Shown here one piece after another: positions 3,001 to 14,549 of a stretch of DNA of 64,000 bases. The notes under the pieces were generated by a model. It ran no database searches. It saw only the letters and a list, made by a program, of their open reading frames with translations, and had not been told where the DNA came from. Every line of letters begins with the position of its first letter. The first letter of the stretch is position 1. The position numbers and the translations under genes were made by a program. The stretch is from a virus: positions 66,762 through 130,761 of the IMG/VR virus record IMGVR_UViG_3300045988_101135; one strand, 5' to 3'.

Positions 3001-4580
3001 CTCATATAGAAAAAGAAGGATTGCCGTCTTATGCTAATATTTTTGATTTTATAGCAAGGAAGATTGTAGGAGGTGATTTGAGGTTTCTTCGTGAGAGAGG
3101 TAATCCTAAAAGCCTTAAGGAAGAAATGGGATTAGAACCTAAAGGAACAGTAGGTGATAAAATATCCACTCCTTCCAGTAAAGGTGGTAAGACCTTAGAA
3201 GAATACGTTTCTTGGCTTCGTTCTCAAACAGATCAGGTGGTGGTTGATTATGTTGGGCCAAGATCTGACGAACAAATTATATCAGAGTTGAAAAACTTTT
3301 TGAAATATATTAATTTTGTTCCAAGCAAGGCTTTGAATTATTCTCTTAGAGTCAATGGCATGGATACCCTAAAAGAATATGGCACAAAAGAGGAAGTAGA
3401 AAAAATGGAATCTGATATCAATAGTTTGGTTTCTAAAGTTTTGCCTACGGTGGACAACCAAACTATAGAAGATGTTTCTACTGCAATAAAATCAAACAAC
3501 TTGCCTGCCATATGGGAGCCCGTGGAAAGCCTTGATATGACAAACGAGGAAAAAATAGAGTTTTTGAATAACGTAGCAGATTTCCTTAGCGGCATACCAG
3601 AGTATGATGCTGTCGTGGAGTCTATAGAGTCAGAATCAGATAATATTTTAAATGATGGAAAAGAAGGAAGTGCAGAAGGCGGTGCAGTACGCACTGAGGA
3701 AGATGGCGATAAAAAGGGAGATGGAGAAGGCAAAGGACAATCCAGAACAAATGTCGAAGTTAAAGGAAATATCGAATTACCTGGATATGAAGAAGGAAGA
3801 GTAGATAACTATAGGAAGAACGGAGATAAGTTCTCTGACATTGCTGAAGTCACTTTATGGCTACTTAGAAGGGCTGCCGGCATAACCTCTATCCCGGAAG
3901 GAGAAGAGGTTTATGTAGAGGGAGATGAGGTTAATAGTATTATGACCGATATGGAATCAAGGTATGGTATAGACACCATCAATCACTCGCATACGACTAA
4001 GGTTATAAGGGATCTTAACGGCGTATCAGGTTATAAAGTAGAATACGGCTTAACCTTTTTGACATACGATCCTTTTATTAGGATATCCAATCCAAGGGAA
4101 GAATATAAGGCTGCGAAAGACGAGCCTCGTATATCCGAAGAACCTCTTACTCACATATCAAGGGTGACAACCCCTTATTTCCTGTACGGCGGTGATGAAG
4201 CATATACATCTGTTCCGGCTAAGGTAGAACCTATACCGGAGAAGATAATGGGTCGTAATGGCATTAAATTTGGTATGAGTGTAGTCGAGTTAACCAAATT
4301 AGGGTACAAAAAAGCTGGTGGAAACTGGATATATAAATTCTATATGAACTCAGGTGTGTATGATTTGTATAATATCAGTACCGGTGAAGCGTTTAGGGCA
4401 AAACCGGATCTTGGAGTTAAGATAAGTTCCAGTGCATTCATCCGCTCTTTATCTCAATCTGGTAGAAAAATACAAAATATGATGAGTAATATGAGCCAGG
4501 AAGAGATAGATAGGAATAAGAATCTCGTAGAAGGTTCTGATAATTCGGATTCGATAAATGAGTTAAATAAGGAGTGTTGA
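9..4580 (+). CDS. giant hypothetical protein, N-terminally truncated by window edge (>=1523 aa)
   Basis: Uninterrupted ORF; frame is open upstream to position 3 so the true start lies outside the window. Pro/Ala-rich linker (PAPLAQPAPAAQ). No catalytic motif recognised. Confidence 0.7.
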   Translation: MFKGLDAEDIAMQASNDIADYVNDNNLFDDINTFYSLSSQAFDTANQLRELRNEINDLNAEIERLATTPRRVEDGNDTEAEAIKQKTIKYDNLNKEYRRLSEDLLSSYKEVFYSFDPGVLALELFKSETITAEDILKAYDSVASLSTYIENNKGKKEAEDLRNMVVKYQQAITQYKVLRSFMNSIQDKKFMRHDFSLFSKFLNDMVSSNTKSIESDRFYQTEDNNISLDEKIDELLNNGEINSDEAFTMKVFGHLNDGITQKPKEDILSDFDYESAMEDLLSAPIEVKERIVDKIYTGNQDLLSPREKEIYEKYKQDIDDYISNLGDSPAKMIKDLSDKVRRLTEPRSVYEDNKAIIDMAKSNLEPDQRKELDDAISSYVDIMNRRDKGEKVDEDKLADSVFTIEDLGQVGNITDLLPYIEQNRIIDKGRISESTLSNFGEDDANIDSLVNELDESDNTPGANIDSAQNPETLMVRRISNDGNERYEIAGLRADKFISSIKSLVPIQISSETNANGTKRYSLNIGGETATIIELPYHARWSIDKESARVLNRYTDVSIQDVGNSYSLVYKRLDSDELVPYRTGVGFGENEVDKIDQEALSSLKKGDKVNLEIDVNDTYNQSLFTEYNDAVQSGDKKRIESAENKLVSNMVIKVMSGNRFVSVVKADTGGIDGISKIRRTAFNKWKKDAGRSATIGVGTHVVAQTLPGRPVFNMRVNGQGYGQVENLPITEKGAEKVSDVGYVLNGKVVLKNGSKYTGFPFAYSILNDKGNNYKNVRVPVVVIKGKNGLNYLFPVSLRSVESEEGQKWMSFIDTLLESGDSELLQMGQDDIQDLNAYLTKLGLDPASYQVSYLNPISGLRKAREAIEKLSTVPDVVKWVEDGSRSVKDIVTSEVESGIDFEGEMFVAPKIRIQFGKSSSRPKSLIEDDLPFSDEGKTVTSKVEDVEVYEEEMPEEGAARETQPAPLAQPAPAAQATQSLPGKKRTSRKNFSLMLNEIESHIEKEGLPSYANIFDFIARKIVGGDLRFLRERGNPKSLKEEMGLEPKGTVGDKISTPSSKGGKTLEEYVSWLRSQTDQVVVDYVGPRSDEQIISELKNFLKYINFVPSKALNYSLRVNGMDTLKEYGTKEEVEKMESDINSLVSKVLPTVDNQTIEDVSTAIKSNNLPAIWEPVESLDMTNEEKIEFLNNVADFLSGIPEYDAVVESIESESDNILNDGKEGSAEGGAVRTEEDGDKKGDGEGKGQSRTNVEVKGNIELPGYEEGRVDNYRKNGDKFSDIAEVTLWLLRRAAGITSIPEGEEVYVEGDEVNSIMTDMESRYGIDTINHSHTTKVIRDLNGVSGYKVEYGLTFLTYDPFIRISNPREEYKAAKDEPRISEEPLTHISRVTTPYFLYGGDEAYTSVPAKVEPIPEKIMGRNGIKFGMSVVELTKLGYKKAGGNWIYKFYMNSGVYDLYNISTGEAFRAKPDLGVKISSSAFIRSLSQSGRKIQNMMSNMSQEEIDRNKNLVEGSDNSDSINELNKEC

Positions 4581-4582
4581 GT

Positions 4583-5113
4583 ATGAGAAGGAGATTTTTT
4601 AATGCTGCGGATAATTTCGTGGGAGGATGTTATAATAAGTTATCCAATGAAGATATAAAAAGGCTTGGAGGAAAAAGACCTTATGTATGTCAGTTTAATA
4701 AAATTCATATACATATAGGACCTGTATTAAAAGATCATGATTCTGATGTTAGTTACATAATGTTTAATAGTAATTGGAATTATGGTGGTTATGAATCTAT
4801 GGTTTATAATCATAGCAATAATGGTATTTTTATATTAGGTGAAAACAAAATTGGTAACATAGAAGATCATATACAAGATCTAACATATTGGTACGAATAT
4901 GATCCAAGCATTAATGAAAATTATTGTTATTTTTATTATGAGGCTAATAACAGCGGAAATGCTATCAAGTTGAATGGTGAGTTTGGTGATACCAGTACTG
5001 TTTTCAACATTCCCAGCTTGGAAGTCACCACTCTTCGTGATGGCAGTTTGAGTTTTCCGGAGATTTATATAGAAGGAATTTGGGATCCGTCATTGTATAA
5101 GTCGGTTTTATAA
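4583..5113 (+). CDS. MRRRF-family small protein A (176 aa)
   Basis: ATG at 4583 preceded by aaggag; the track ORF starts at GTG 4574. N-terminus is MRRRFF. A C-terminal block EYDPSINENY...NG..G is shared with the ORF at 21329. Confidence 0.6.
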   Translation: MRRRFFNAADNFVGGCYNKLSNEDIKRLGGKRPYVCQFNKIHIHIGPVLKDHDSDVSYIMFNSNWNYGGYESMVYNHSNNGIFILGENKIGNIEDHIQDLTYWYEYDPSINENYCYFYYEANNSGNAIKLNGEFGDTSTVFNIPSLEVTTLRDGSLSFPEIYIEGIWDPSLYKSVL

Positions 5114-5139
5114 TTAACTTTGCAAAAAAGTTAATTACA

Positions 5140-7398
5140 ATGGGTGTCAAATGTCAGATAGAAAAAAAGGAAAATGAAATAAAACGGGTTAAGGCTCCTA
5201 ACGGGGAGCCTTCCGTTCTTTACGAAAGTGCTTTAAAAGTATTAGGAAACAGCGAGCGGGCCCTTCAGGTATGGGCTAAGGCTTACACTCCTGGTTTTTT
5301 GTCGTATTACGGTCATTGGAACAACCCGGCTCCAGGGGAGATGTTTAACACCGATCCCAATGGCGAACCTCTTTTAGAAGACGTGCTGTCGTATATGAAG
5401 CGTCAGACTTATTTTGCTGATCCTTTAACGGCTCAGGATGTTAAGGATGTAAGGGATTTCCTTTTGTCTACTCATTATTTTTTCAATGCGTCTTCATTGT
5501 CTAATGCTATTCTCTTCGATTTTTATGTAGATGGCAGTTTGATACTGAATGAGCAGAAATTAAGGAGATCCGGTTTGTATGATGAAACAGAAATAAGTCG
5601 TATTTTATCCGATCCTTCTGTTTTAAACGAGGTTTCGACTTCCATGAGAAAGTTAATAGATTCTTCTATTAACGAACATGATAGGGAAAAAGATAATTAT
5701 TTTATGTCTATTGACTATCAGTATGGTCCTATTGTTTACAAGGAGGGAGTGTTTAACCAATTTGGTAAAAAAGTACCATATAATCCTTCTGAGCTTTATT
5801 ATGCTATGCGTAAAACAGTAGCCGGCATAAAAAACTTTTCTGAATTTTCATCTGCTTTTGAATCGTTGAGAAATTCATATCCTGAACTGGTTGAGAAATT
5901 CGTTTCTGATAAAGAATTTGCCGAATCTATGTTTGATGAGTTCTCATCTACGAATAAGATTCCGGTAATAAACATAGAAGGGGATGATGTGGTGGAAGGC
6001 AAGAGAAGATCTTTGTCTAAGCTACAAGATCTTTCTTATTACAATTCCGGCAAAATAGAGTTCCTAAGAGCTCGTATATCAGCTTATTTACATAGGGCTA
6101 ATGCCGACACCGAATCCGATTTAAGAAGCATGATATGGGATATAGAAGAGGCTTGTACGTGGTTTGGCATAGATATAATAGGGACATCGGAAACTTATGA
6201 TGGCACAGAAGAATCTTTGAATAAGATAGATAATTTGATGCTGGATCTTGATATTTATGTGGCCAGGCATAATGATGTAAATTATGCTCCAGCGCTGGCA
6301 TCTTCTATAGATGATGTTCTTGGTGATAGTACAGACTATTATTTTGGATTATTGCCGGAGTATATGGATAATTTGAATATCGTTTATTCTGAATCCGATA
6401 TAGACCCAGTAGAGGCATTTGAGAAACATTCATTGCTCAAGGTAGGAGATAATCTATATCAAAGGATCAGCAAAGATGATCTTAACGAGATGTATCAAAT
6501 ATCAACAGTATTAGCCAAGCACAACCTAACTCATTTTTCTACTAAAATATATCCTGAATCTTGTTTTAAGAACGGCGTTTTGGATAAAGAGAAAGTACGG
6601 AACGTAGATAATAATACGCTCATGGCTTCCATTAAAAAATACGTCAGATCGTTCATGGATTCTCAGAACACAGAGGACATGATAATGACCAGGATGGCGT
6701 TTGGGCACCCTGCGGTACTTGACGTTCCTTACGTGGATGTGGATCGGGAGTATAGTCGATACATGAACAAAAAACAAGATAGCGAAAACCCATTATCCTT
6801 ATTCGATTTATACCAATCTTACCTTGACAACAAACTCCATAAAACAAAATTATATGATAATGCCTATAAGTATCTTGACTTCAAACCTGGTCCATCTTTG
6901 GGTCTTATTTCTGATGATCCTGATATTTTGAAATCAATAGAATTATCTTTATCTGGAAAAGACAGGTTGATGTTGTTTGATTATAGCATGACCAGTACCG
7001 ACCCTTCTTTATCAGAATTGTTTTATTTGGAGAGGTATGACCCTTCGTATGCTGGGAATGATTTTGAACACTATTTTTACACCAGGCACCCGTATTTGTT
7101 AAAAGAAAAATCGGGTTCTAATATCGTAGAGCAAGATGGTGTTATAACAGCAGAAGGTATTTATGATAATTTTATAAGAGTAGGTAATAAGATATGGTCT
7201 AAAGTAAGCGAGAGTAGTTCCGGCTCTATCTACCAAAATCTAACAGGAACCGAATCGGAGGTGAAATACGATTCTACTCAGAAGGCTAAGACGGTAGAAA
7301 CCGATTACGCTCCATACCAAAACAGATCTGGCTTGACGCAAGATATGACCGTAAGCAAGTCTGAATTGGATGATCTTAATAAATTGGAATGCAAATAA
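5140..7398 (+). CDS. hypothetical protein (752 aa)
   Basis: Long ORF co-oriented with the giant ORFs; no recognisable domain. Confidence 0.65.
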   Translation: MGVKCQIEKKENEIKRVKAPNGEPSVLYESALKVLGNSERALQVWAKAYTPGFLSYYGHWNNPAPGEMFNTDPNGEPLLEDVLSYMKRQTYFADPLTAQDVKDVRDFLLSTHYFFNASSLSNAILFDFYVDGSLILNEQKLRRSGLYDETEISRILSDPSVLNEVSTSMRKLIDSSINEHDREKDNYFMSIDYQYGPIVYKEGVFNQFGKKVPYNPSELYYAMRKTVAGIKNFSEFSSAFESLRNSYPELVEKFVSDKEFAESMFDEFSSTNKIPVINIEGDDVVEGKRRSLSKLQDLSYYNSGKIEFLRARISAYLHRANADTESDLRSMIWDIEEACTWFGIDIIGTSETYDGTEESLNKIDNLMLDLDIYVARHNDVNYAPALASSIDDVLGDSTDYYFGLLPEYMDNLNIVYSESDIDPVEAFEKHSLLKVGDNLYQRISKDDLNEMYQISTVLAKHNLTHFSTKIYPESCFKNGVLDKEKVRNVDNNTLMASIKKYVRSFMDSQNTEDMIMTRMAFGHPAVLDVPYVDVDREYSRYMNKKQDSENPLSLFDLYQSYLDNKLHKTKLYDNAYKYLDFKPGPSLGLISDDPDILKSIELSLSGKDRLMLFDYSMTSTDPSLSELFYLERYDPSYAGNDFEHYFYTRHPYLLKEKSGSNIVEQDGVITAEGIYDNFIRVGNKIWSKVSESSSGSIYQNLTGTESEVKYDSTQKAKTVETDYAPYQNRSGLTQDMTVSKSELDDLNKLECK

Positions 7399-7442
7399 TT
7401 TTTGTATATATATAATATATTTTTTCATAATTACGATTTGGG

Positions 7443-7472
7443 AAGTGAGGCTTGTGAAAGTCTCACTTTTCT
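7443..7472 (+). terminator. hairpin (7-8 bp stem aagtgagg/tctcactt) followed by ttctc
   Basis: Inverted repeat 45 nt downstream of the 752-aa ORF stop; weak T tract. Confidence 0.35.
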
Positions 7473-7987
7473 CATATATGTACGTATATCAATAACATAC
7501 AAGAAAAGTTAGATTTTCATTGTTTATGAATTATTTTTGTTAAATTTGCGATATTAGTTTCAGGAAGGGATTATAGAAATAGGAAAAAGTAAGAACCGGA
7601 CGTAACTAATAACAGTAGGAAATGAGAATCAGTACCATCAAACGTAACAACAGCATTCATATTATGTATAAAAACATTATGAATGATTTAGGTCAATTAA
7701 GAACTGTAGTTTCAAAATCCTATATTTATAATCTGATACAAAATCAAACCGGATTAAGTATCAAAACTATATCCCATGTACTTAACCATACCAAAGAATA
7801 GGATACGGATTCTTTGTGAAAAGCATATATTTTCATACATTTGTTCGTTCTTTAGTTTTAGTAGGGAAAAGTTTTTCATGGTATTTTAGTTTAGATTAGT
7901 TGAGGCAGGATTCGCAGTGATGCGGATCCTGTTTTGATTTACAGCGCTTTACCCAAAAAAGAAAAGCGAAAGTTGCTGATTATCAAT

Positions 7988-8009
7988 TTTTCCCCATAAA
8001 TGGGGAAAA
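7988..8009. promoter_or_regulatory. perfect palindrome ttttcccca-taaa-tggggaaaa in a 750-nt leader
   Basis: 9-bp perfect inverted repeat with a 4-nt loop and no flanking U-run; lies in the long non-coding stretch 7399-8153. Confidence 0.3.
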
Positions 8010-8153
8010 CTACTCGTTGTATATTATATTTCCGTTTTTACTGAAAATCCTTCCATTTTATCGGAAACAAACTCAGCCTTGTTCCACCCTGCAATCATGA
8101 TCTTTGTTACGTGCTTCATGCACGTATGTTTAACAATTAAATACTATAAAATT

Positions 8154-9161
8154 ATGGGTGGTGATAAAATCGTCCTTTTAGATGGAGCCGGGGCTAACGG
8201 TGGTGGTGCAGCCACTAACGGTCTTCTTTCAATGATTCCCGGCATGTTTGCTAATTTGATAGGTGGTAATAAAATGGATCCGAATCTGGTGGCGGCTTTG
8301 ATGAACGGTCGTAACAACCAGGACGGTTTCGGTGGGGCTAACGGTTGGTGGCTCTGGATAATTGTTTTGTTCTGGCTGTGGGGTGGACGCGGCTTCGGTA
8401 ACGGTTTTGGAAATGGCGGTGATTGTTGTGCCAATGGTTTGCCGGCTCAGTTGAATAACGATTACGGTCGTGAACTTTTGATGCAGGCAATTCAAGGTAA
8501 TCGTAGCGCCATAGATCAGATTGCTTCTGCTTTGAACTGTTCTACTACTCAACTTCAGAACGCTATCTGCAACGTACAGGGTGCTATTGATAAAGTAGCT
8601 GGTCAGGTAGGTATGACTTCTCAGGCTGTTATCAACGCAGTTCAACAACAAGGTTGTGAAATAGGAAATCAAATCAGCTCTTGCTGCTGCAATCTGAGTT
8701 CGTTGATCAATCAAAGCACTTGCCAGACTCAGGGAATGATTACTCAGCAAGGTTTTGATAACCAGCTTCGCATGTTGGAACAAACCAATGTCTTGCAGAA
8801 CGGTCTCAACCAAGGTCTGGCTAACAATCGTGAGCAAGCTACAAGCCAATTCAATATCTTGTCTGCGAAACTTGACGCCCAAACCGTTATGATCAACGAC
8901 AAATTCTGTCAGTTGGAAATGAGGGAAATGCAGAACACTATTGCTCAACTTCGTGAAGAAAAAGCGGCTTTGACAGCTTCGGCATTATCTCAGCAACAAA
9001 CCCAGAATATCGTTGGTCAATTACGCCCGACGGCCGTCCCGGCCTACCCCTCTTGTTCTCCTTACCAGGCTTATACTTGGGGACAGGTATTCGGAGGAGG
9101 TTGCTGTAATAACGGATGCGGATGTAACAACGGATGTTGCAATAACAACGCTGCTGTCTGA
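8154..9161 (+). CDS. Gly/Gln/Asn/Cys-rich low-complexity protein with one hydrophobic segment
   Basis: ATG at 8154 (track ORF starts at TTG 8079). Contains GGGAATNG, WWLWIIVLFWLWGG, Q/N-rich heptad-like stretches, and the C-terminus GGGCCNNGCGCNNGCCNNNAAV. Confidence 0.5.
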   Translation: MGGDKIVLLDGAGANGGGAATNGLLSMIPGMFANLIGGNKMDPNLVAALMNGRNNQDGFGGANGWWLWIIVLFWLWGGRGFGNGFGNGGDCCANGLPAQLNNDYGRELLMQAIQGNRSAIDQIASALNCSTTQLQNAICNVQGAIDKVAGQVGMTSQAVINAVQQQGCEIGNQISSCCCNLSSLINQSTCQTQGMITQQGFDNQLRMLEQTNVLQNGLNQGLANNREQATSQFNILSAKLDAQTVMINDKFCQLEMREMQNTIAQLREEKAALTASALSQQQTQNIVGQLRPTAVPAYPSCSPYQAYTWGQVFGGGCCNNGCGCNNGCCNNNAAV

Positions 9162-9184
9162 TTTTATTAAGAAAGGAGGCTAAT

Positions 9185-9598
9185 ATGGCTTGTGTTTCTA
9201 AAATAGGATCGTTGTATGAGATGGTTACGAAGAATGTTATTGTCAGTACGACAAATACAGTCTTCGGTATTAACCCACGGGCTTGGATCGCCCTTCCGTG
9301 TGAGGGTCTTATCCTTCTTAAGATAAGGCAAGTAGTCCCCACAGCCGGAAGTGCTCTACCGGTACAGATTGCGGTCCCGGCAAACAGCACAGTTTCAACA
9401 GTAGGAGCCGACACCTGTTGCCCGGTTACGGGAGTGAATGTCGTGAACCCTATTAACGTAGCTGTCACGGGTGCTGCTATGGTAAATGGCACAGAACGCC
9501 TTCTGTACTTCAATAAAGTTCGTGGCGTGTTAAGATTAATGGATTGTTGTGTTCCGACAACAACAGCCCAGGCGTCTGAAGTTAAAGCAGGTAAATGA
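9185..9598 (+). CDS. hypothetical protein (137 aa)
   Basis: ORF preceded by gaaaggagg (SD-like); Thr/Val-rich. Confidence 0.55.
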   Translation: MACVSKIGSLYEMVTKNVIVSTTNTVFGINPRAWIALPCEGLILLKIRQVVPTAGSALPVQIAVPANSTVSTVGADTCCPVTGVNVVNPINVAVTGAAMVNGTERLLYFNKVRGVLRLMDCCVPTTTAQASEVKAGK

Positions 9599-9605
9599 TT
9601 TCAGT

Positions 9606-9634
9606 AGGGTGATGAAGATCATCACCCTATTTTC
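9606..9634 (+). terminator. hairpin agggtgatg-aagat-catcaccct followed by atttt
   Basis: 9-bp perfect stem just after the 9598 stop. Confidence 0.35.
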
Positions 9635-9648
9635 ACCTAACTAATATT

Positions 9649-10143
9649 TTGATCATGTTTTCAGATTTGAAGAAAGGGTTTCAGGTACATACCCTTGATA
9701 CTAATACAGTACCTAAATACGAATTGGGAAAGGTAGTAGCCGTATCCGAACCCAGGTATCTTCCTCCTCAGCCAGGTCAGTATCAGGCGATGCAGACCCG
9801 CGTGGTGGATCTGACGGTAGAGCTCACTGGCGAAACCAAGACCTATACGGTCCCGGAATCCCAGAATGTGGCTAAGGCTATGGGCATAACATTATCTACC
9901 AGCATAGATCCGATTATGAACGAACTGAATGCTATAAAAAACACCAGTCAAGACATAATAAACAGCGTAGATGCCCATCGTGCCAAGATAGAGGCTTGTG
10001 AATCTATATTAGAAGACATCAATCCGGCATTCAAACAAACGAGAGAGCAGGATCGTAAAATAGCTGGTATAGAAAATAAGGTGAATGACCTTACTGATTC
10101 ATTCGAAGATTTAAAGAAGTTAATTGTAGAACGTTTGAAATAA
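9649..10143 (+). CDS. hypothetical protein (164 aa)
   Basis: ORF in the co-oriented array; C-terminal half predicted helical. Confidence 0.5.
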   Translation: MIMFSDLKKGFQVHTLDTNTVPKYELGKVVAVSEPRYLPPQPGQYQAMQTRVVDLTVELTGETKTYTVPESQNVAKAMGITLSTSIDPIMNELNAIKNTSQDIINSVDAHRAKIEACESILEDINPAFKQTREQDRKIAGIENKVNDLTDSFEDLKKLIVERLK

Positions 10144-10150
10144 GTGTAAT

Positions 10151-10519
10151 ATGATAGTATATGATTTAAATTCAGGACACAGAGAATATCCTGGATATGA
10201 CGAGATAGAAGACAGACGAGGTGGAGGCAGAGGCAGAAGCCGGCGTTCTGATGGGACGTACATGGGGTACGGTGGTGGTATTTACGACCATTACGGTATG
10301 CATGAGAAGATGAAGGAAATGGAAGAACGCGAAAACGAGCTGGAAGAAAGGGAAAGAAGGCTTGAAGAGCGCGAACGTCGTCATGAAATGGAGGACCGGG
10401 AATACCGGAGGATGGGTTACGAATCCTACCCGACCGATTACTATGGAGACGACAGATACTACGGTGACGGACCTCAGATGCGTAGAGGTCGCGGACGTGG
10501 CAGAGGTCGTTCTTATTGA
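10151..10519 (+). CDS. RG/RGG- and Glu/Arg-repeat protein (122 aa)
   Basis: GGGRGRSRR at the N-terminus, an EERENELEERERRLEERERRHE repeat, and RRGRGRGRGRSY at the C-terminus; resembles disordered nucleic-acid-binding proteins. Confidence 0.45.
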   Translation: MIVYDLNSGHREYPGYDEIEDRRGGGRGRSRRSDGTYMGYGGGIYDHYGMHEKMKEMEERENELEERERRLEERERRHEMEDREYRRMGYESYPTDYYGDDRYYGDGPQMRRGRGRGRGRSY

Positions 10520-10612
10520 GGAGCAGACGCAGAGGATCCAGCTTATCAGAAATATGTAGATACTTACGGCTACCATTTTTCTAATGCTCTCGCTGATGAG
10601 GCGGTAAAGAAG

Positions 10613-10906
10613 ATGGTCAACGTCGATGGATCCAAGAGGATCTGGAAGCAGCCGGAAATAAAAGATATTTTTGAAAAGTGCGGAGCGAAGAAGCCGGATA
10701 AAGCGACATGGGGCGATGTCCAATATGTCTTTGCAATGTACTATTCGGATGGTTTTCCGAAGGTCTTCAAATGTGAGAACGAGTTGGTGAAAGCTACGTT
10801 AATGTATTTGGATGATCCGGATGCTCCCGAAGGAGTAGCCTTTATAAGATGGCTTGCCGTGCAAGATTACCTCGGCGAAAAAATAAACTGGAAGGATCTG
10901 ACCTGA
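10613..10906 (+). CDS. hypothetical protein (97 aa)
   Basis: ORF in the array. Confidence 0.45.
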   Translation: MVNVDGSKRIWKQPEIKDIFEKCGAKKPDKATWGDVQYVFAMYYSDGFPKVFKCENELVKATLMYLDDPDAPEGVAFIRWLAVQDYLGEKINWKDLT

Positions 10907-11270
10907 GATCCAGATCCAGGTCCTTCCGGTGGTGCGGGAGCCATAGTAAAAAATATGATTCCCGCATTCCCGTTTTTCCCGTTTGGAAAAAAAGGAATAA
11001 AAATATTATACCGGTCGGCGGGCAATAGAATACCCGTGGCCGGTTTGTTTCACATAACTTTTTTTGGGATATGAATATAGCACACGAATCTAAATCGAAT
11101 AAAACCCCATTGTATTTAATAGGAGAGTTGATTGGCGTACCGAATACGGTTATGGACTCAGCATTGCATGAACTGAAAGATAGAATAGACAAAGACCCTA
11201 AATATAAAGATGTTAAAAATTGGCTCGAATCTTTACCCAAGATCTGAACCTATTTTTTTTCAATACCAGG

Positions 11271-11305
11271 CCCGATGCGATTTTAACGTATCGGGTTTTT
11301 ATTTT
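11271..11305 (+). terminator. hairpin cccgat-13nt-atcggg followed by tttttatttt
   Basis: 6-bp GC-rich stem plus T tract in the intergenic region 10907-11375. Confidence 0.4.
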
Positions 11306-11375
11306 AATTCATATTGTTTTATTTTAAATCTAATTAATTCATGAATGTCGTACTTTTGTTGAAAAAGTATTCTAT

Positions 11376-11603
11376 ATGGAAAATAAGGAAGATTACGTTG
11401 GTTACGAGGATCAAGAACTGTGTAACCGGTATTACAAAGAGGCTGAAGCCATGAGGCAAAAGCAGGACTGGTCTCGGCTTAGGGCTGTCCCTGCTCCGGC
11501 CAAGGGAACGCCATCGCCCGGCTGGGGTCAGCTTGGACGTGGAAATGATGTCCGTGTTAAGTATGTTAGCATCAATTCAGGATTAGGAGGAGATAGGTTA
11601 TGA
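11376..11603 (+). CDS. hypothetical small protein (75 aa)
   Basis: ORF overlapping the next ORF by 4 nt (ATGA-type coupling). Confidence 0.35.
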   Translation: MENKEDYVGYEDQELCNRYYKEAEAMRQKQDWSRLRAVPAPAKGTPSPGWGQLGRGNDVRVKYVSINSGLGGDRL

Positions 11604-11815
11604 CTGTAGAAGAATTGGCTAATAAAAGATACGGTGGCGAATTTGTTTTCATGTTTGGTCATCTTGAAGGTAGAACAAGATTCGTTTTTGAATGCTTTGA
11701 TCCCAGACCTGATCACGAAGGTAAAAACACTTATATGGTTTCCTATTTTGATAAGGGACTTCGTAGAAGAGATGTGGTAGATGTGCCGTGTTATATGAAT
11801 ATTTTGCCAAAATAA
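11600..11815 (+). CDS. hypothetical small protein (71 aa)
   Basis: Translationally coupled small ORF. Confidence 0.35.
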   Translation: MTVEELANKRYGGEFVFMFGHLEGRTRFVFECFDPRPDHEGKNTYMVSYFDKGLRRRDVVDVPCYMNILPK

Positions 11816-12018
11816 TGGAAACATTAATCTTAGATGTACCTGTATTTTCCGGTAAGATTATTTCTCCTATCTGGATTAAAGCCGTAAGAGATTTTCAATC
11901 CAAATCGAAGACAGAAAGAGACTCGTATTGTTTGATTTGTGGATGTACAGGAGGGTGTAACTTGTGCGATGATATAAGTAAATATAGGATTTCAGAACAA
12001 TTAAAATATTACAAATAA
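11788..12018 (+). CDS. hypothetical Cys-containing small protein (76 aa)
   Basis: ORF with CLICGCTGGCNLC. Confidence 0.35.
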   Translation: MLYEYFAKIMETLILDVPVFSGKIISPIWIKAVRDFQSKSKTERDSYCLICGCTGGCNLCDDISKYRISEQLKYYK

Positions 12019-12749
12019 TGGAATTAAAAGATTCAGTCAGGGTAATGACTAAAGAAGAGTTCGAATCAGCAATCAACGAAGATATTAAATTCGTTGAAGG
12101 AATTAAGCATTTTTTTAAACATGATGATGCTACGAGGGTAATGGAACACGTAAAGTCCGTGTTAGAGGCATCAGTAGACTACCACTACCCGAATCATCCT
12201 GAACCTGAAGCAGAACCTGGAGACATGGGAGAGGTTTCTGATGGATACCATACTTTCAATGAATTGTATCGGTACCGCATGTTGTATAATGCCGCCTTCT
12301 TTAATCTATTAGCCAGAAACGGACAGGTTGAAGTTTGCAAATCAAGGAGACACAGCGATGGAGAAAAATGCTTCGGTTCTGATGATTGGTTTATTGTGAT
12401 GGCGATCCTACCTACCGGTCAGGTATCTAATCACTATGAAAGCAAATACTGGGATTTGTTTGATGTTCCTGAAAGAGAAACCGCTTTCGAATACGATGGC
12501 CATACACCAAATGAAGCCTCCGACAGACTTGAAAAGTATCTCAAACTGCCTCGTCATGGCATGACATTCGAACAGGCTTTAGAACGGCTTAAATTAGGTC
12601 GTAAGATAAAAAGAATCGATTGGGGTAAAAAGTATATCTGTATGTTTGACGTAAATATATTGATGATAGATACAGGTCAAAAAGTAGCATCAAATTGGAA
12701 TCCAACCGAACATGATATTATGTCTAATGACTGGGAGATTGCGGGATGA
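12018..12749 (+). CDS. protein with C-terminal DUF2829 (Tad2-like) domain
   Basis: The last ~60 aa read MTFEQALERLKLGRKIKRIDWGKKY...NWNPTEHDIMSNDWEI. This matches the F-x-EAL-x2-LK-x-G-KK-V-R-x-x-W ... D-W-E signature of the DUF2829/Tad2 family. The N-terminal 180 aa are unassigned. Confidence 0.5.
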   Translation: MELKDSVRVMTKEEFESAINEDIKFVEGIKHFFKHDDATRVMEHVKSVLEASVDYHYPNHPEPEAEPGDMGEVSDGYHTFNELYRYRMLYNAAFFNLLARNGQVEVCKSRRHSDGEKCFGSDDWFIVMAILPTGQVSNHYESKYWDLFDVPERETAFEYDGHTPNEASDRLEKYLKLPRHGMTFEQALERLKLGRKIKRIDWGKKYICMFDVNILMIDTGQKVASNWNPTEHDIMSNDWEIAG

Positions 12750-13021
12750 GTTTGTTTGTTTGTTCAAAATGTGGCTGTATAGATAATACAGCCACATCCT
12801 GTTATTGGGCTCTTATAAGACCTTGTAAGAATCGTATTTACGATAAGTCGCTAAAGGGATATGAAGGCAAGCCTCTTTGTTCTGAATGTGCCGCTATTGA
12901 ATATAGTAAGGGAGACGAAGTGGTGGTAGTTCCTGGAACGTGGCATGGTAAGTTCAAGAAAGAATGGCCTACTGAAGAAGAGAAGAAGCATATTGGTAAA
13001 AACGGTATTTTAAATATGTAA
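12746..13021 (+). CDS. Cys-rich zinc-ribbon-like small protein (91 aa)
   Basis: CSKCGC...C...C...CSEC pattern. Confidence 0.4.
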   Translation: MSLFVCSKCGCIDNTATSCYWALIRPCKNRIYDKSLKGYEGKPLCSECAAIEYSKGDEVVVVPGTWHGKFKKEWPTEEEKKHIGKNGILNM

Positions 13022-13024
13022 ATT

Positions 13025-13330
13025 ATGTGTGATAAGGAAATTGTTGTATGCGCAGCTATATGGGTTCAAGATCACAAGAACAAGCCTCACGGTCCAGTAA
13101 ACATACCATCCGGAACCGTATTTTGTGGATTGAGACATTGTTCTATCATTTCTCAGTTTGCAGCTTATGGTATTGCTCATAAAAACCGCAGTGTTCAAGG
13201 ATTTTTGACAAGCAAGAATCGGTTTCTAACAAGAGAGGAGGCATCTGCTCTTGTTAAGAGCAATAATCAGGAAATGGTAGTAGATAGGAGTGCCATTAGA
13301 GAACAATTGTATTCAGAAGATCTATATTAA
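13025..13330 (+). CDS. hypothetical protein (101 aa)
   Basis: ORF; contains conserved-looking VFCGLRH and GFLTSKNRFLTREEA motifs of unknown family. Confidence 0.45.
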   Translation: MCDKEIVVCAAIWVQDHKNKPHGPVNIPSGTVFCGLRHCSIISQFAAYGIAHKNRSVQGFLTSKNRFLTREEASALVKSNNQEMVVDRSAIREQLYSEDLY

Positions 13331-13347
13331 CTAAAAAACAAAACAAC

Positions 13348-13701
13348 ATGGGGTTTAAAATCAAAAAGTCAATCACTTATGATATGATGGACGACAGTCG
13401 GGTAGAGTACGAATTTGATAATACCAATGATTTAAATCATATCATATTTAAAGGTAATTGTAGAGAACCTTTTTCATTCAGCAGAGTACTTGTTGAAGAA
13501 TTAATTAAGACATTTGAAACCATACGGGATAGATACTCTGATAATTATGAACTTAAGGTCTATCTTTACAATTGTATAATTCAACTGAGCGTAAATCCAA
13601 AGGATCCCAGTGAATCCTTTTTTGGCGTATATGATAGAGATGAGATGAAATTGATATACGGAATAAAGATCAGTATTCTGAAAGGAATGTTTGGCATATG
13701 A
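13348..13701 (+). CDS. hypothetical protein (117 aa)
   Basis: ORF in the array. Confidence 0.45.
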   Translation: MGFKIKKSITYDMMDDSRVEYEFDNTNDLNHIIFKGNCREPFSFSRVLVEELIKTFETIRDRYSDNYELKVYLYNCIIQLSVNPKDPSESFFGVYDRDEMKLIYGIKISILKGMFGI

Positions 13702-14015
13702 TGACTAAACAAGATATACAAGCAGCAGCATCGTATGTTTTCCGAAGCAGTTTTGTCTCGGAGGACCAGACAAGGAAAACAATGGTAAAAGCCGGCAATA
13801 ACGCTACCAAGATCCTCGTCAAGACCTTTAGAGGCAAATTGTTCAAGAAAGCTTTTGAAAGAGCCCGTAGAGGAAAGGATATCAGTTCTTTTGAAAGACA
13901 GGAAAAAGAAAGTGGTTTCAATTTTCTTTACAATCCTAATAATGGTCGTATGCAAAGCGGTCATATTATAATAGATGGAATTGGTCTGTTTAAACAAATA
14001 ATTCATGAAAGGTAA
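13698..14015 (+). CDS. hypothetical basic protein (105 aa)
   Basis: ORF overlapping the previous ORF by 4 nt. Confidence 0.4.
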   Translation: MMTKQDIQAAASYVFRSSFVSEDQTRKTMVKAGNNATKILVKTFRGKLFKKAFERARRGKDISSFERQEKESGFNFLYNPNNGRMQSGHIIIDGIGLFKQIIHER

Positions 14016-14180
14016 AAAAGTTGATATTCGTTTAGGCAGAGGTCTGGCGAATCAGATTAAGATAAACAAAACCATTCCAGTGTCTCATAAACCAAAAGAA
14101 GAACGTCGAATGATGTTTATTTGTGGTGATGATATTGCTTCTCTTATAAAGCGGTTTGAAAACGAATCAAAGTAATATAA

Positions 14181-14212
14181 AGTCGGACATGTGTCTTGTC
14201 CGACTTTTTTTT
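14181..14212 (+). terminator. rho-independent terminator agtcggaca-tgtgtct-tgtccgact + T8
   Basis: Perfect 9-bp stem, 7-nt loop, followed by tttttttt. Confidence 0.7.
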
Positions 14213-14225
14213 ATATATTTGTGGC

Positions 14226-14549
14226 ATGGCAAGAGGTTATTATTGGATACCACAAACAGATGAAACGTTAAATGGCAGAAGCTATTACGTGGCTAAGATA
14301 GTAGGAGATATCACGTTTGATACTAAACGAAAAAGAATCGTATTTCAAGCTGATAGGTATTTCCCTGTAGGATCTGTTTTCCATTTTACGCACAATTGCT
14401 TCAATTATATCATAACTTGCCGACTTCGTAAGCCGGGGCTTTGGTTTGAAGCCAGGAGAGAGGATTCGGGCCCTATTTGCCCTGAAGATATTGAGCGCTT
14501 TGAATCGGGAAGGTTTATACACCGAGATGGGTACATGCATTACATATAA
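14226..14549 (+). CDS. hypothetical protein (107 aa; start moved to the second Met)
   Basis: The track ORF starts at 14196 inside the terminator hairpin; ATG at 14226 (MARGYYW) is the more plausible start. Confidence 0.4.
   Translation: MARGYYWIPQTDETLNGRSYYVAKIVGDITFDTKRKRIVFQADRYFPVGSVFHFTHNCFNYIITCRLRKPGLWFEARREDSGPICPEDIERFESGRFIHRDGYMHYI

Follow-up and report, generated by a model that had tools for sequence, protein, structure and literature searches.

Are the low-complexity proteins encoded in a stretch of viral DNA genuine gene products, and if so, at what stage of infection are they likely to act? We address this question for a 64,000-nucleotide stretch of the IMG/VR virus record IMGVR_UViG_3300045988_101135 (positions 66,762 to 130,761 of that record; hereafter the window, in whose numbering its features are given). 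Here a sequence-only reading had singled out, between positions 8154 and 10519, a 335-amino acid (aa) protein and a 122-aa protein as unusual, non-enzymatic products reminiscent of phase-separating or structural matrix proteins. We find that both genes belong to a cassette with conserved, colinear gene order that comprises five to seven genes, is shared by crAss-like and other Bacteroidales phages and has carriers numbering in the hundreds. Its genomic context fits a role at the host envelope or late in infection better than that of a matrix inside the capsid, because phages of differently labelled morphotypes share the cassette and because it usually adjoins lysis genes. The window itself derives from a crAss-like phage of the epsilon group. 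Its closest relative is csAssE-Sib (OR575929.1, 151 kb, from the human gut), which is 96% identical to the window over 7000-11000 and whose size and gene content fit the Epsilon crAss-like group of Yutin et al., with genomes of roughly 150 kb (PMC7886860).

A conserved cassette in Bacteroidales phages

A pattern scan with one genome per species recovered 35 loci, mostly from Bacteroidales isolates and metagenome-assembled genomes. Clustering of the open reading frames (ORFs) of these and of the phage loci revealed a fixed order: a small DNA-binding gene, c0 (~310 aa), c1 (105-200 aa), c2 (~170 aa), an ORF of 71-125 aa (termed x in the window), a DUF7841 protein (~137 aa), sometimes a 60-aa ORF, and a protein of ~140 aa with an HExxH motif. 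Among the loci compared, c0 is present in 37, c1 and c2 in 34 each, DUF7841 in 32 and the HExxH peptidase in 28. The window carries a helix-turn-helix (HTH) gene followed by c0, c1, c2, x and DUF7841, the peptidase being missing. The two proteins flagged earlier correspond to c0 and x. The original description was correct for these two and passed over two conserved genes between them, namely c1 (9185-9598) and c2 (9649/9655-10143). The view that the two proteins belong together also holds, as a protein rich in R, G, E, D and Y occupies the slot of x in every related cassette. The carriers comprise Crassvirales and phages annotated or named under other morphotypes (sipho- or myo-like; the morphotypes are those of the labels). 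They include Bacteroides phage C3_41T2LP, where the cassette lies downstream of recombination genes; it is absent from crAss001.

With sequences of such skewed composition, it is conceivable that the ORFs are spurious and the region simply non-coding and repetitive. The same skew does open long ORFs on the opposite strand, encoding 239, 191 and 183 aa (8229-8948, 8938-9513 and 10172-10723, minus strand), which are likely to be traps for gene calling. Against a spurious origin, thousands of homologues retain the motifs, the gene order and the frame down to about 25-30% identity; the proteins match PHROG and Pfam families, and c1 has a confidently predicted fold. For c0, a word-indexed search returned 2962 homologues at E<=1e-3, with 935 cluster representatives at 50% identity. 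Since the reading frames are conserved, we regard the spurious reading as refuted and assign it a negligible probability. That these are unusual, low-complexity and non-enzymatic proteins encoded by real genes is borne out.

All components belong to families that are catalogued but uncharacterised, and none has a characterised homologue. Comparisons of the cassette proteins with Pfam, NCBIfam and PADLOC yielded nothing beyond coiled-coil noise, apart from DUF7841 itself, and profiles of c0, c1, DUF7841 and the peptidase recovered nothing significant among the sequences of solved structures. The c1, c2, x and DUF7841 proteins, of the window as well as of its relatives, show neither a signal peptide nor a lipobox, and the peptidase likewise has none. 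A scan of the whole window against Rfam found no RNA family. Literature searches on csAssE-Sib and on DUF7841 turned up no papers, and none describing the cassette was found in the literature on these two subjects, on B. uniformis phages or on Bacteroides prophage lysis.

The c0 protein combines a hydrophobic segment with a long helix

The c0 gene (8154-9161, plus strand) encodes the 335-aa protein and matches PHROG 16490 (E 3.2e-43) as well as 30 phage records, mostly of Crassvirales. Its reported richness in Gly, Gln, Asn and Cys was confirmed (G 13.1%, N 11.6%, Q 10.7% and C 5.1%, the last amounting to 17 residues), as were the Gly-rich tracts, the single Trp-rich hydrophobic segment (WWLWIIVLFWLW, aa 65-76) and the C-terminal tail (GGGCCNNGCGCNNGCCNNNAAV). 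Alignments of the family show an N-terminal part in which about 60 aa with a conserved DPNLVAALMN motif precede a Gly-rich tract, a Trp-rich hydrophobic core of 12-14 residues and a second Gly-rich tract. Next come a Q/N-rich helical region with conserved cysteines, an invariant CCC (aa 177-179), a helix of ~108 residues (aa 183-290), a Pro-rich linker and the tail. The tails vary across the family, being either of a Gly/Cys type (GCGCGC) or of a Gly/aromatic type (GFGG, ...GYGLGFG..GFWG), and the epsilon clade conserves the motif CC-x3-C-x-C-x3-CC. The AlphaFold2 (AF2) model of c0 is poor overall (pLDDT 53), with good confidence confined to the helix at 183-290.

The best matches of the c0 profile among solved structures are peptides of the coronavirus S2 heptad repeat 1 (HR1) and rotavirus VP4, at non-significant E-values of 0.01-0.03 (range 0.0097-0.05), and these matches span only 40-110 coiled-coil residues. 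The architecture does bear a likeness to class I fusion proteins and S2 HR1 in that Q/N-rich heptad helices come after a hydrophobic segment rich in Gly. Unlike these proteins, c0 lacks a signal peptide, an HR2 and a C-terminal anchor, and it has no match in Pfam. We therefore attribute the labels "spike protein/glycoprotein" and "outer capsid protein/viral fiber", given these non-significant E-values, to coiled-coil composition and not to homology; correcting such misleading labels is one practical outcome of this analysis. A further candidate, a precursor of a ribosomally synthesized and post-translationally modified peptide or thiazole/oxazole-modified microcin (microcin B17-like in its Gly/Cys tail), was rejected since the tail belongs to a 335-aa protein with a hydrophobic anchor; no modification enzyme of the cyclodehydratase or radical S-adenosylmethionine type was matched among the neighboring ORFs at 4574-14549.

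The c1 and c2 proteins and a peptidase found in most relatives

The c1 gene (9185-9598, plus strand) encodes a 137-aa protein that matches 11 phage records, and 528 proteins were found with its profile. An AF2 model built on an alignment reassembled from database matches (pLDDT 79, pTM 0.71) predicts an all-β sandwich. When compared with BFVD, the model first retrieves uncharacterised members of its own family, one of them fused to DUF7841, and then the C-terminal domains of tail-fibre and collagen-like phage proteins. Because the uncharacterised family members rank first, we consider the predicted resemblance to phage fibre-tip domains to be weak. The c2 gene (9655-10143, plus strand) encodes 162 aa from the ATG at 9655, or 164 aa from a TTG at 9649. 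It matches PHROG 28898 (E 3.9e-19) and occurs in 26 phage records and 34 loci, with an N-terminal β domain followed by a C-terminal coiled coil.

These features invite comparison with phage fibre and needle proteins, of which Pa193 gp47 was recovered as a fold match; P22 gp26 and the Sf6 needle knob provide further examples of a coiled-coil shaft with a β-sandwich tip. As in those proteins, long helices (c0 and c2) accompany a small β-sandwich (c1) that lies near tail-fibre domains in fold space. In contrast to them, the shaft and the "tip" are here separate small proteins, c0 has a membrane-type hydrophobic segment, and in most genomes the cassette is found apart from the structural modules.

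The HExxH protein is a mini-gluzincin of ~140 aa, in which H88, E89, H92 and E108 are invariant across 28 related loci. No match to it was found at E<=10 in a six-frame translation of the window, nor in the first 90 kb of csAssE-Sib. In C3_41T2LP the peptidase is annotated as a "PolyVal metallopeptidase"; Iyer et al. are said to have proposed in 2017 that the PolyVal-type class is delivered along with the DNA.

A DUF7841 domain behind the in-frame stop codon of x

The x gene (10151-10519, plus strand) lies between c2 and DUF7841, and its 122-aa product indeed consists of RGG boxes and Glu-Arg repeats, as had been described (R 19.7%, G 16.4%, E 15.6%, Y 12.3%). The boxes (RRGGGRGRSRR and RRGRGRGRGRSY) are situated at either end and the (E/R)n block in the center. 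With a charged-residue fraction of 0.45, a net charge of about 0, 12% aromatic residues and 16% Gly, the protein is disordered by composition. An R/G/E/D/Y-rich ORF of 71-125 aa is present in every locus where c2 and DUF7841 are adjacent, with equivalents in 23 loci. These ORFs contain 10-21% R, share recurring MGERR-type motifs and usually end in RRRR, RGRGRY or GRYM. In a hidden Markov model comparison with the x proteins of other loci, that of the window scored 38.1 against 30.3 ± 4.3 for shuffled sequences, 24 of 500 shuffles scoring as high; since this similarity is at the level of shuffles, we claim only positional and compositional equivalence.

Past the TGA stop of x (10517-10519), the same frame continues into a complete DUF7841 domain (Pfam PF25223; 10517-10906 including the TGA, plus strand). 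The copy in the window is detected by Pfam with E 3.8e-9, above the gathering score, and by PHROG 38431 with E 2e-5. A custom profile, which includes this very copy, matches with E 1.5e-34 when the 31 codons upstream of the ATG are added, its alignment beginning at codon 9 past the TGA. Read in the frame of x, these 31 codons (10520-10612, GADAEDPAYQKYVDTYGYHFSNALADEAVKK) match the N-terminal portion of the domain, where conservation is highest. ATG, GTG and TTG are all missing from this stretch, and the first such codon is at 10613, 31 codons into the conserved region. The same layout recurs in the divergent epsilon contig L041 (7544-7675) and in csAssE-Sib (12529-12624 of the extracted locus L001). 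Between L041 and the window 23 of the 31 codons differ, 12 of them only synonymously, and most of the replacements are conservative. Such a preponderance of synonymous and conservative changes indicates that the stretch after the TGA appears to be under selection at the protein level. Further, TGA occupies this position in all 101 informative IMG/VR contigs, which represent two lineages and were retrieved with a pattern that included the downstream context and not the stop codon.

On this evidence, it would seem that the full DUF7841 domain can only arise in this lineage if translation continues past the TGA of x. The simplest reading is that UGA readthrough at a low level would yield x and, in addition, a fusion of x with DUF7841 of about 251 aa. 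Programmed UGA readthrough is exemplified by the coat/A1 protein of phage Qβ. As in that system, an invariant in-frame TGA separates two coding regions, the downstream of which lacks its own start; the present case differs in coming from a dsDNA phage and in that readthrough is suggested by the sequence. Genome-wide recoding was rejected as an explanation because a single site is concerned and TGA is the ordinary stop of 24 of the 79 ORFs in the window. A scan of the window for tRNAs found none, and in the first 90 kb of csAssE-Sib there was no suppressor tRNA, only tRNAs for Cys (GCA), Arg (CCT), Gln (TTG), Met, Tyr and Lys. Stop-codon recoding has been reported mainly for other groups of crAss-like phages (PMC7886860), from which the single-site situation described here is distinct. 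Our analysis thus flags a possible case of single-site UGA readthrough in a dsDNA phage.

Natural fusions and deletions of the cassette genes

Gene fusions offer a further view of the relationships between the components. In several epsilon lineages, including contigs of 79-150 kb, residues 1 to ~300 of c0 are fused in frame to the C-terminal coiled coil of c2. Residues 1-74 of c1 are fused to DUF7841 on at least 14 long contigs of a lineage from which c2 and x have disappeared. The DUF7841 domain of the cultured Parabacteroides phage PD691P3 is fused to an x-like N-terminal region that is charged and of low complexity, and at the locus cr1_1 an x-like D/E/R/Y-rich region is instead fused to the C-terminus of that domain. 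The recurrence of such fusions (c0::c2, c1::DUF7841, x::DUF7841 and DUF7841::x) argues that the parts of the cassette are functionally coupled. Judged from these architectures, DUF7841 behaves as the hub domain of the cassette and x as its detachable, probably disordered tail. A Pfam family defined only as a domain of unknown function thereby gains a context, namely that of a hub fused to disordered Arg-rich tails.

The region 8154-10906 is also a natural deletion hotspot in epsilon populations. Metagenomic proteins (P0003-P0188) document dozens of distinct junctions at which the 5' portion of c0 runs into c2, into DUF7841 or into a gene lying several kilobases downstream, some of them in frame and stable across many samples. 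c0 is retained in the epsilon contigs examined.

These observations bear on the original suggestion of a phase-separating or matrix-forming factor, which in an updated form would have a membrane-anchored c0 and the Arg/Tyr-rich x make a condensate or a cross-linked matrix, possibly with nucleic acid. The RGG/RG repeats of RGG-box RNA-binding and condensate proteins are present in x, which shares RGG/RGR runs, Tyr/Gly enrichment and blocks of opposite charge with eukaryotic FUS- and hnRNP-type regions. It differs from these in being a bacterial-virus protein of 71-125 aa across loci that lacks an RNA-recognition domain and is coupled to DUF7841 as a neighbor or fusion partner. The charged fraction, aromatic content and Gly content of x would suit condensation, as would the Gly/aromatic or Gly/Cys tails of the c0 family; moreover, the composition of x is conserved although its sequence is not, as is typical of functional disordered regions. 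The aromatic/Gly tails of c0 and the Arg-rich tails of x are therefore compatible in composition with phase separation. Nevertheless, the argument is one from composition alone, natural epsilon variants delete x and c2 and yet retain c0, and x acts as a detachable tail of a folded domain rather than as a stand-alone scaffold. Condensation would also be a physical mode of action rather than a biological function, and as such is compatible with the other readings considered here. As an explanation in its own right we deem it quite improbable.

Linkage to lysis genes and the proposed role at the host envelope

Holin, endolysin or spanin-like genes are located within 5 kb of the cassette in at least 19 of the 27 loci that have 2.5 kb or more of upstream sequence, a count to be read with the shared ancestry of the loci, which are not independent, and with the non-exhaustive annotation of the eight "negative" ones. 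The holin at the linked loci is of the Phage_holin_4_1 type, and the endolysins belong to six unrelated types: Peptidase_M15_3, Phage_lysozyme, Amidase_2, Amidase_3, the PHROG 873 type and an L,D-carboxypeptidase. The spanin-like neighbors are of two kinds, namely proteins that combine an N-terminal lipobox with a C-terminal transmembrane (TM) segment and members of DUF6808. At prophage-like loci the lysis genes come first and the cassette follows them, often as the last block before a convergent integrase (11 loci). At cr1_1 it is inside the lysis block and at cr116_1 directly after it. In the cultured phages PD691P3 and BF486P2, divergent versions of c0, c2 and x::DUF7841 are found directly upstream of the holin and endolysin genes.

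Beside the endolysin genes of Bacteroidales prophage-like loci we also observed a typical u-spanin-like family that has no Pfam or PHROG annotation (6979-7383 of locus L010 and cluster c5, in 14 loci); its members begin with a lipobox, end with a TM segment and are β-rich in between.

Based on these contexts we tentatively favor a reading in which the cassette would assist lysis or egress as an accessory that acts late and at the host envelope, and we hold it as a real possibility that falls short of being probable. c0 would be held in the inner membrane by its Trp/Gly-rich segment, and c2 would build a long coiled-coil stalk with it. As they are devoid of signal peptides, c1, x-DUF7841 and, where present, the peptidase would meet c0 in the cytoplasm or through the holin-opened membrane, the route taken by canonical endolysins. 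Candidate elements for binding the envelope or partners would be the tails, Arg-rich in x and of aromatic, Gly and Cys residues in c0. The complex might adjust when the envelope of Bacteroidales hosts is broken down and virions are released, or help to finish the breakdown. In favor of such a role, the lysis linkage persists through module shuffling and endolysin replacement, and c0 unites a hydrophobic anchor with a helix of ~108 residues. The presence of the cassette in phages labelled with different morphotypes is likewise what is seen with modules directed at the host envelope, and points to specificity for the host rather than for the virion.

Among the known systems that come closest are the spanins, which occur either as an Rz-type i-spanin with an Rz1 o-spanin or as a u-spanin of the T1 gp11 type. 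Like these, c0 has a hydrophobic, putative anchor towards its N-terminus and a long coiled coil bearing cysteines, and its gene usually lies beside those for the holin and endolysin. On the other hand, about 60 residues precede its anchor, five further partner genes are conserved with it, and there is no sequence similarity to spanins. The lipoprotein expected as the o-spanin of a two-component system is not found among c1, c2, x and DUF7841, and the prophage-like loci separately encode a u-spanin-like protein. The lysis-cassette location expected of an i-spanin is seen at most related loci and in PD691P3 and BF486P2, and not in the window's lineage or in C3_41T2LP.

Several observations weigh against an accessory role in lysis. 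No cassette component matches a characterised family of lysis proteins, and the charges flanking the hydrophobic segment of c0 do not settle its membrane topology. In csAssE-Sib about 55 kb separate the cassette from the endolysin gene and from those for a transmembrane protein and a protein with a signal peptide, and in both this genome and the window the cassette is placed between giant "structural" genes; in C3_41T2LP it follows recombination and not lysis genes. Prophage-like loci already own a full set of holin, endolysin and u-spanin-like genes, so that there is no missing lysis function to fill. The adjacency may result simply from being placed last in the late operon, and the deletion variants of epsilon phages show that natural phages can do without at least c1, c2 and x. 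Finally, the dedicated HTH gene upstream and the location beside the integrase at many loci would also fit an independently regulated moron.

The placement between giant genes annotated as structural, in the window as well as in csAssE-Sib, raises the possibility that the products are instead part of the virion or ejected from it. On this view, which is close to the cargo idea of the original reading, c0, c2 and c1 would either assemble into a coiled-coil structure resembling a fibre or needle or serve as ejection or cargo proteins that insert into membranes; x-DUF7841 and, where encoded, the peptidase would be packaged and delivered with the DNA. The long, fibre-like helix of c0 agrees with this, and so do the lack of signal peptides in the partners, as for cytoplasmic assembly, the c0::c2 fusions, which imply one shared compartment, and the PolyVal-type annotation of the C3_41T2LP peptidase. 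In PD691P3, moreover, the cassette is flanked by a β-rich 370-aa protein and the holin, a frequent site of tail-fibre genes. However, structural modules are normally specific to a morphotype, yet both crAss-like phages and those labelled as sipho- or myo-like have the cassette; most temperate loci place it after the lysis genes, outside the structural block; and it is missing in crAss001, whose virion structure has reportedly been solved. Frequent natural deletions, weak fold matches and a strongly hydrophobic, Trp-rich segment of 12-14 residues, unusual in a fibre, also speak against a virion component. We consider this alternative unlikely.

On the boldest reading, the cassette would encode a hitherto unrecognised multi-protein machine specific to Bacteroidales phages. 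A membrane-anchored c0/c2 coiled-coil core would be joined by a subunit resembling a fibre tip and by a disordered, Arg-rich effector to which DUF7841 is coupled; the machine would break down the envelope, control release or block entry in a way not covered by holins, endolysins and spanins, and would be regulated in epsilon phages by programmed readthrough of a single invariant UGA that gives x and x-DUF7841. We consider this reading unlikely. A conserved, lysis-linked cassette without a characterised homologue is a concrete and testable candidate for a missing piece of the biology of these phages. Three cultured carriers, at least of the divergent form, make genetics feasible: PD691P3 (Parabacteroides), BF486P2 (B. 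fragilis) and C3_41T2LP (B. uniformis).

The upstream region and possible independent regulation

The sequence-only reading had described the region between a 752-aa gene and c0 (7399-8153) as a 750-nucleotide non-coding leader. This description has to be abandoned, as the region contains a gene, two terminator-like hairpins and the site of an indel. The first hairpin (7440-7471, plus strand), just 3' of the 752-aa gene, is followed by UUUUCUC and has a folding energy of -19.2 kcal/mol (z -5.1, with 0 of 200 shuffles as stable). Next comes p59 (7622-7801, plus strand; cluster c10), an intact gene for a 59-aa HTH-like protein, after which a second hairpin (7898-7939, plus strand; -25.2 kcal/mol, z -7.7) is followed by UUUUG. 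A general scan for sigma-70 promoters and terminators reported nothing above shuffled sequences and missed these two strong hairpins.

Homologues of p59 with 42-51% identity are found directly upstream of c0 homologues at four unrelated loci (L026, L027, L028 and L032), and a weaker one (about 32%) is upstream of c0 at L035, with two ORFs in between. They share with p59 an HTH-like end, ...KTIAYILNHTK. The copy in csAssE-Sib (L001 8620-8844), annotated as "lactose operon repressor", is frameshifted, whereas that of the window is intact. More generally, a small DNA-binding gene lies directly upstream of the cassette in most loci and is drawn from four unrelated families, which include p59, one DnaA_C-like and one Xis/TerS-like family.

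The segment at 7942-8028 (88 nucleotides) has no counterpart in csAssE-Sib, as judged from blastn breakpoints and the annotation of that genome, which in its place has 1.1 kb (L001 8928-10031) with a Bro-N/antirepressor gene. In other contigs Bro-N or TnpB sequences are fused to fragments of c0 or c1 (P0004, P0098, P0082 and P0339). The palindrome reported as perfect at 7988-8009 falls within the 88-nucleotide segment and consists of 10-nucleotide arms around a non-palindromic center of two nucleotides (TTTTCCCCAT-AA-ATGGGGAAAA). The window has no second copy of it and relatives do not conserve it; it folds into a weak hairpin (-11.8 kcal/mol) that no T run follows. For these reasons we rejected a conserved operator or terminator and treat the palindrome as a local feature of an indel junction. 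Closer to c0, the stretch 8098-8126 (plus strand) holds TGATCTTTG and a hairpin (8108-8126). A (T/A)CTTTGT(T/A)ACG block before the start of c0 is conserved in divergent relatives, and a hairpin of different sequence occupies the same place in two of these, L041 and L043. The TGATCTTTG/CTTTG block resembles the Bacteroides -7 box, TAnnTTTG, and it is plausible that block and hairpin are the promoter and 5' untranslated region of c0.

The recurrence of unrelated DNA-binding genes at this position is one argument for a moron, that is, an independently regulated, membrane-based module for superinfection exclusion, inter-phage competition, defence or anti-defence with an HTH regulator of its own. 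Being the last block before a convergent integrase in 11 loci is a classic moron position, and the location of the cassette differs among crAss-like genomes. In the window it is part of an island of small accessory genes that includes one for a WDGH and Tad2-like protein, while the relative has an antirepressor, and the nearby TnpB and antirepressor insertions along with the frequent deletions would suit dispensable conflict genes. Conversely, PADLOC models of defence systems gave only coiled-coil noise at E >= 1e-3 with the cassette proteins, six or seven genes would be unusually many for exclusion, and the cassette is conserved in virulent-type crAss-like and temperate phages alike. The lysis-gene linkage, moreover, recurs across rearrangements. 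We thus view a moron of this kind as a doubtful explanation.

Neighboring genes and sporadic occurrences

The WDGH/Tad2-like gene (12018-12749, plus strand) encodes a 243-aa protein that unites a WDGH domain (E 4.5e-36) with a domain like that of the Thoeris anti-defence protein Tad2 (E 5.6e-11); the island of small genes that it shares with the cassette lies between two giant ORFs. Genes for HNH homing endonucleases of the I-HmuI-like type recur in or beside the cassette in its relatives, on the opposite strand in three loci. They are found between c0 and c1 or after c1 (L013, L018 and L037) and at 6009-6629 of L003. Finally, a 2.3-kb contig in the assembly of Vibrio olivae CECT 8064 (NZ_JBHMEP010000037.1, our L006) encodes c0, c1 and c2 with identities to the window of 72%, about 31% and 61%, respectively; it looks like a contamination of the marine isolate assembly by a gut phage rather than a phage of Vibrio.

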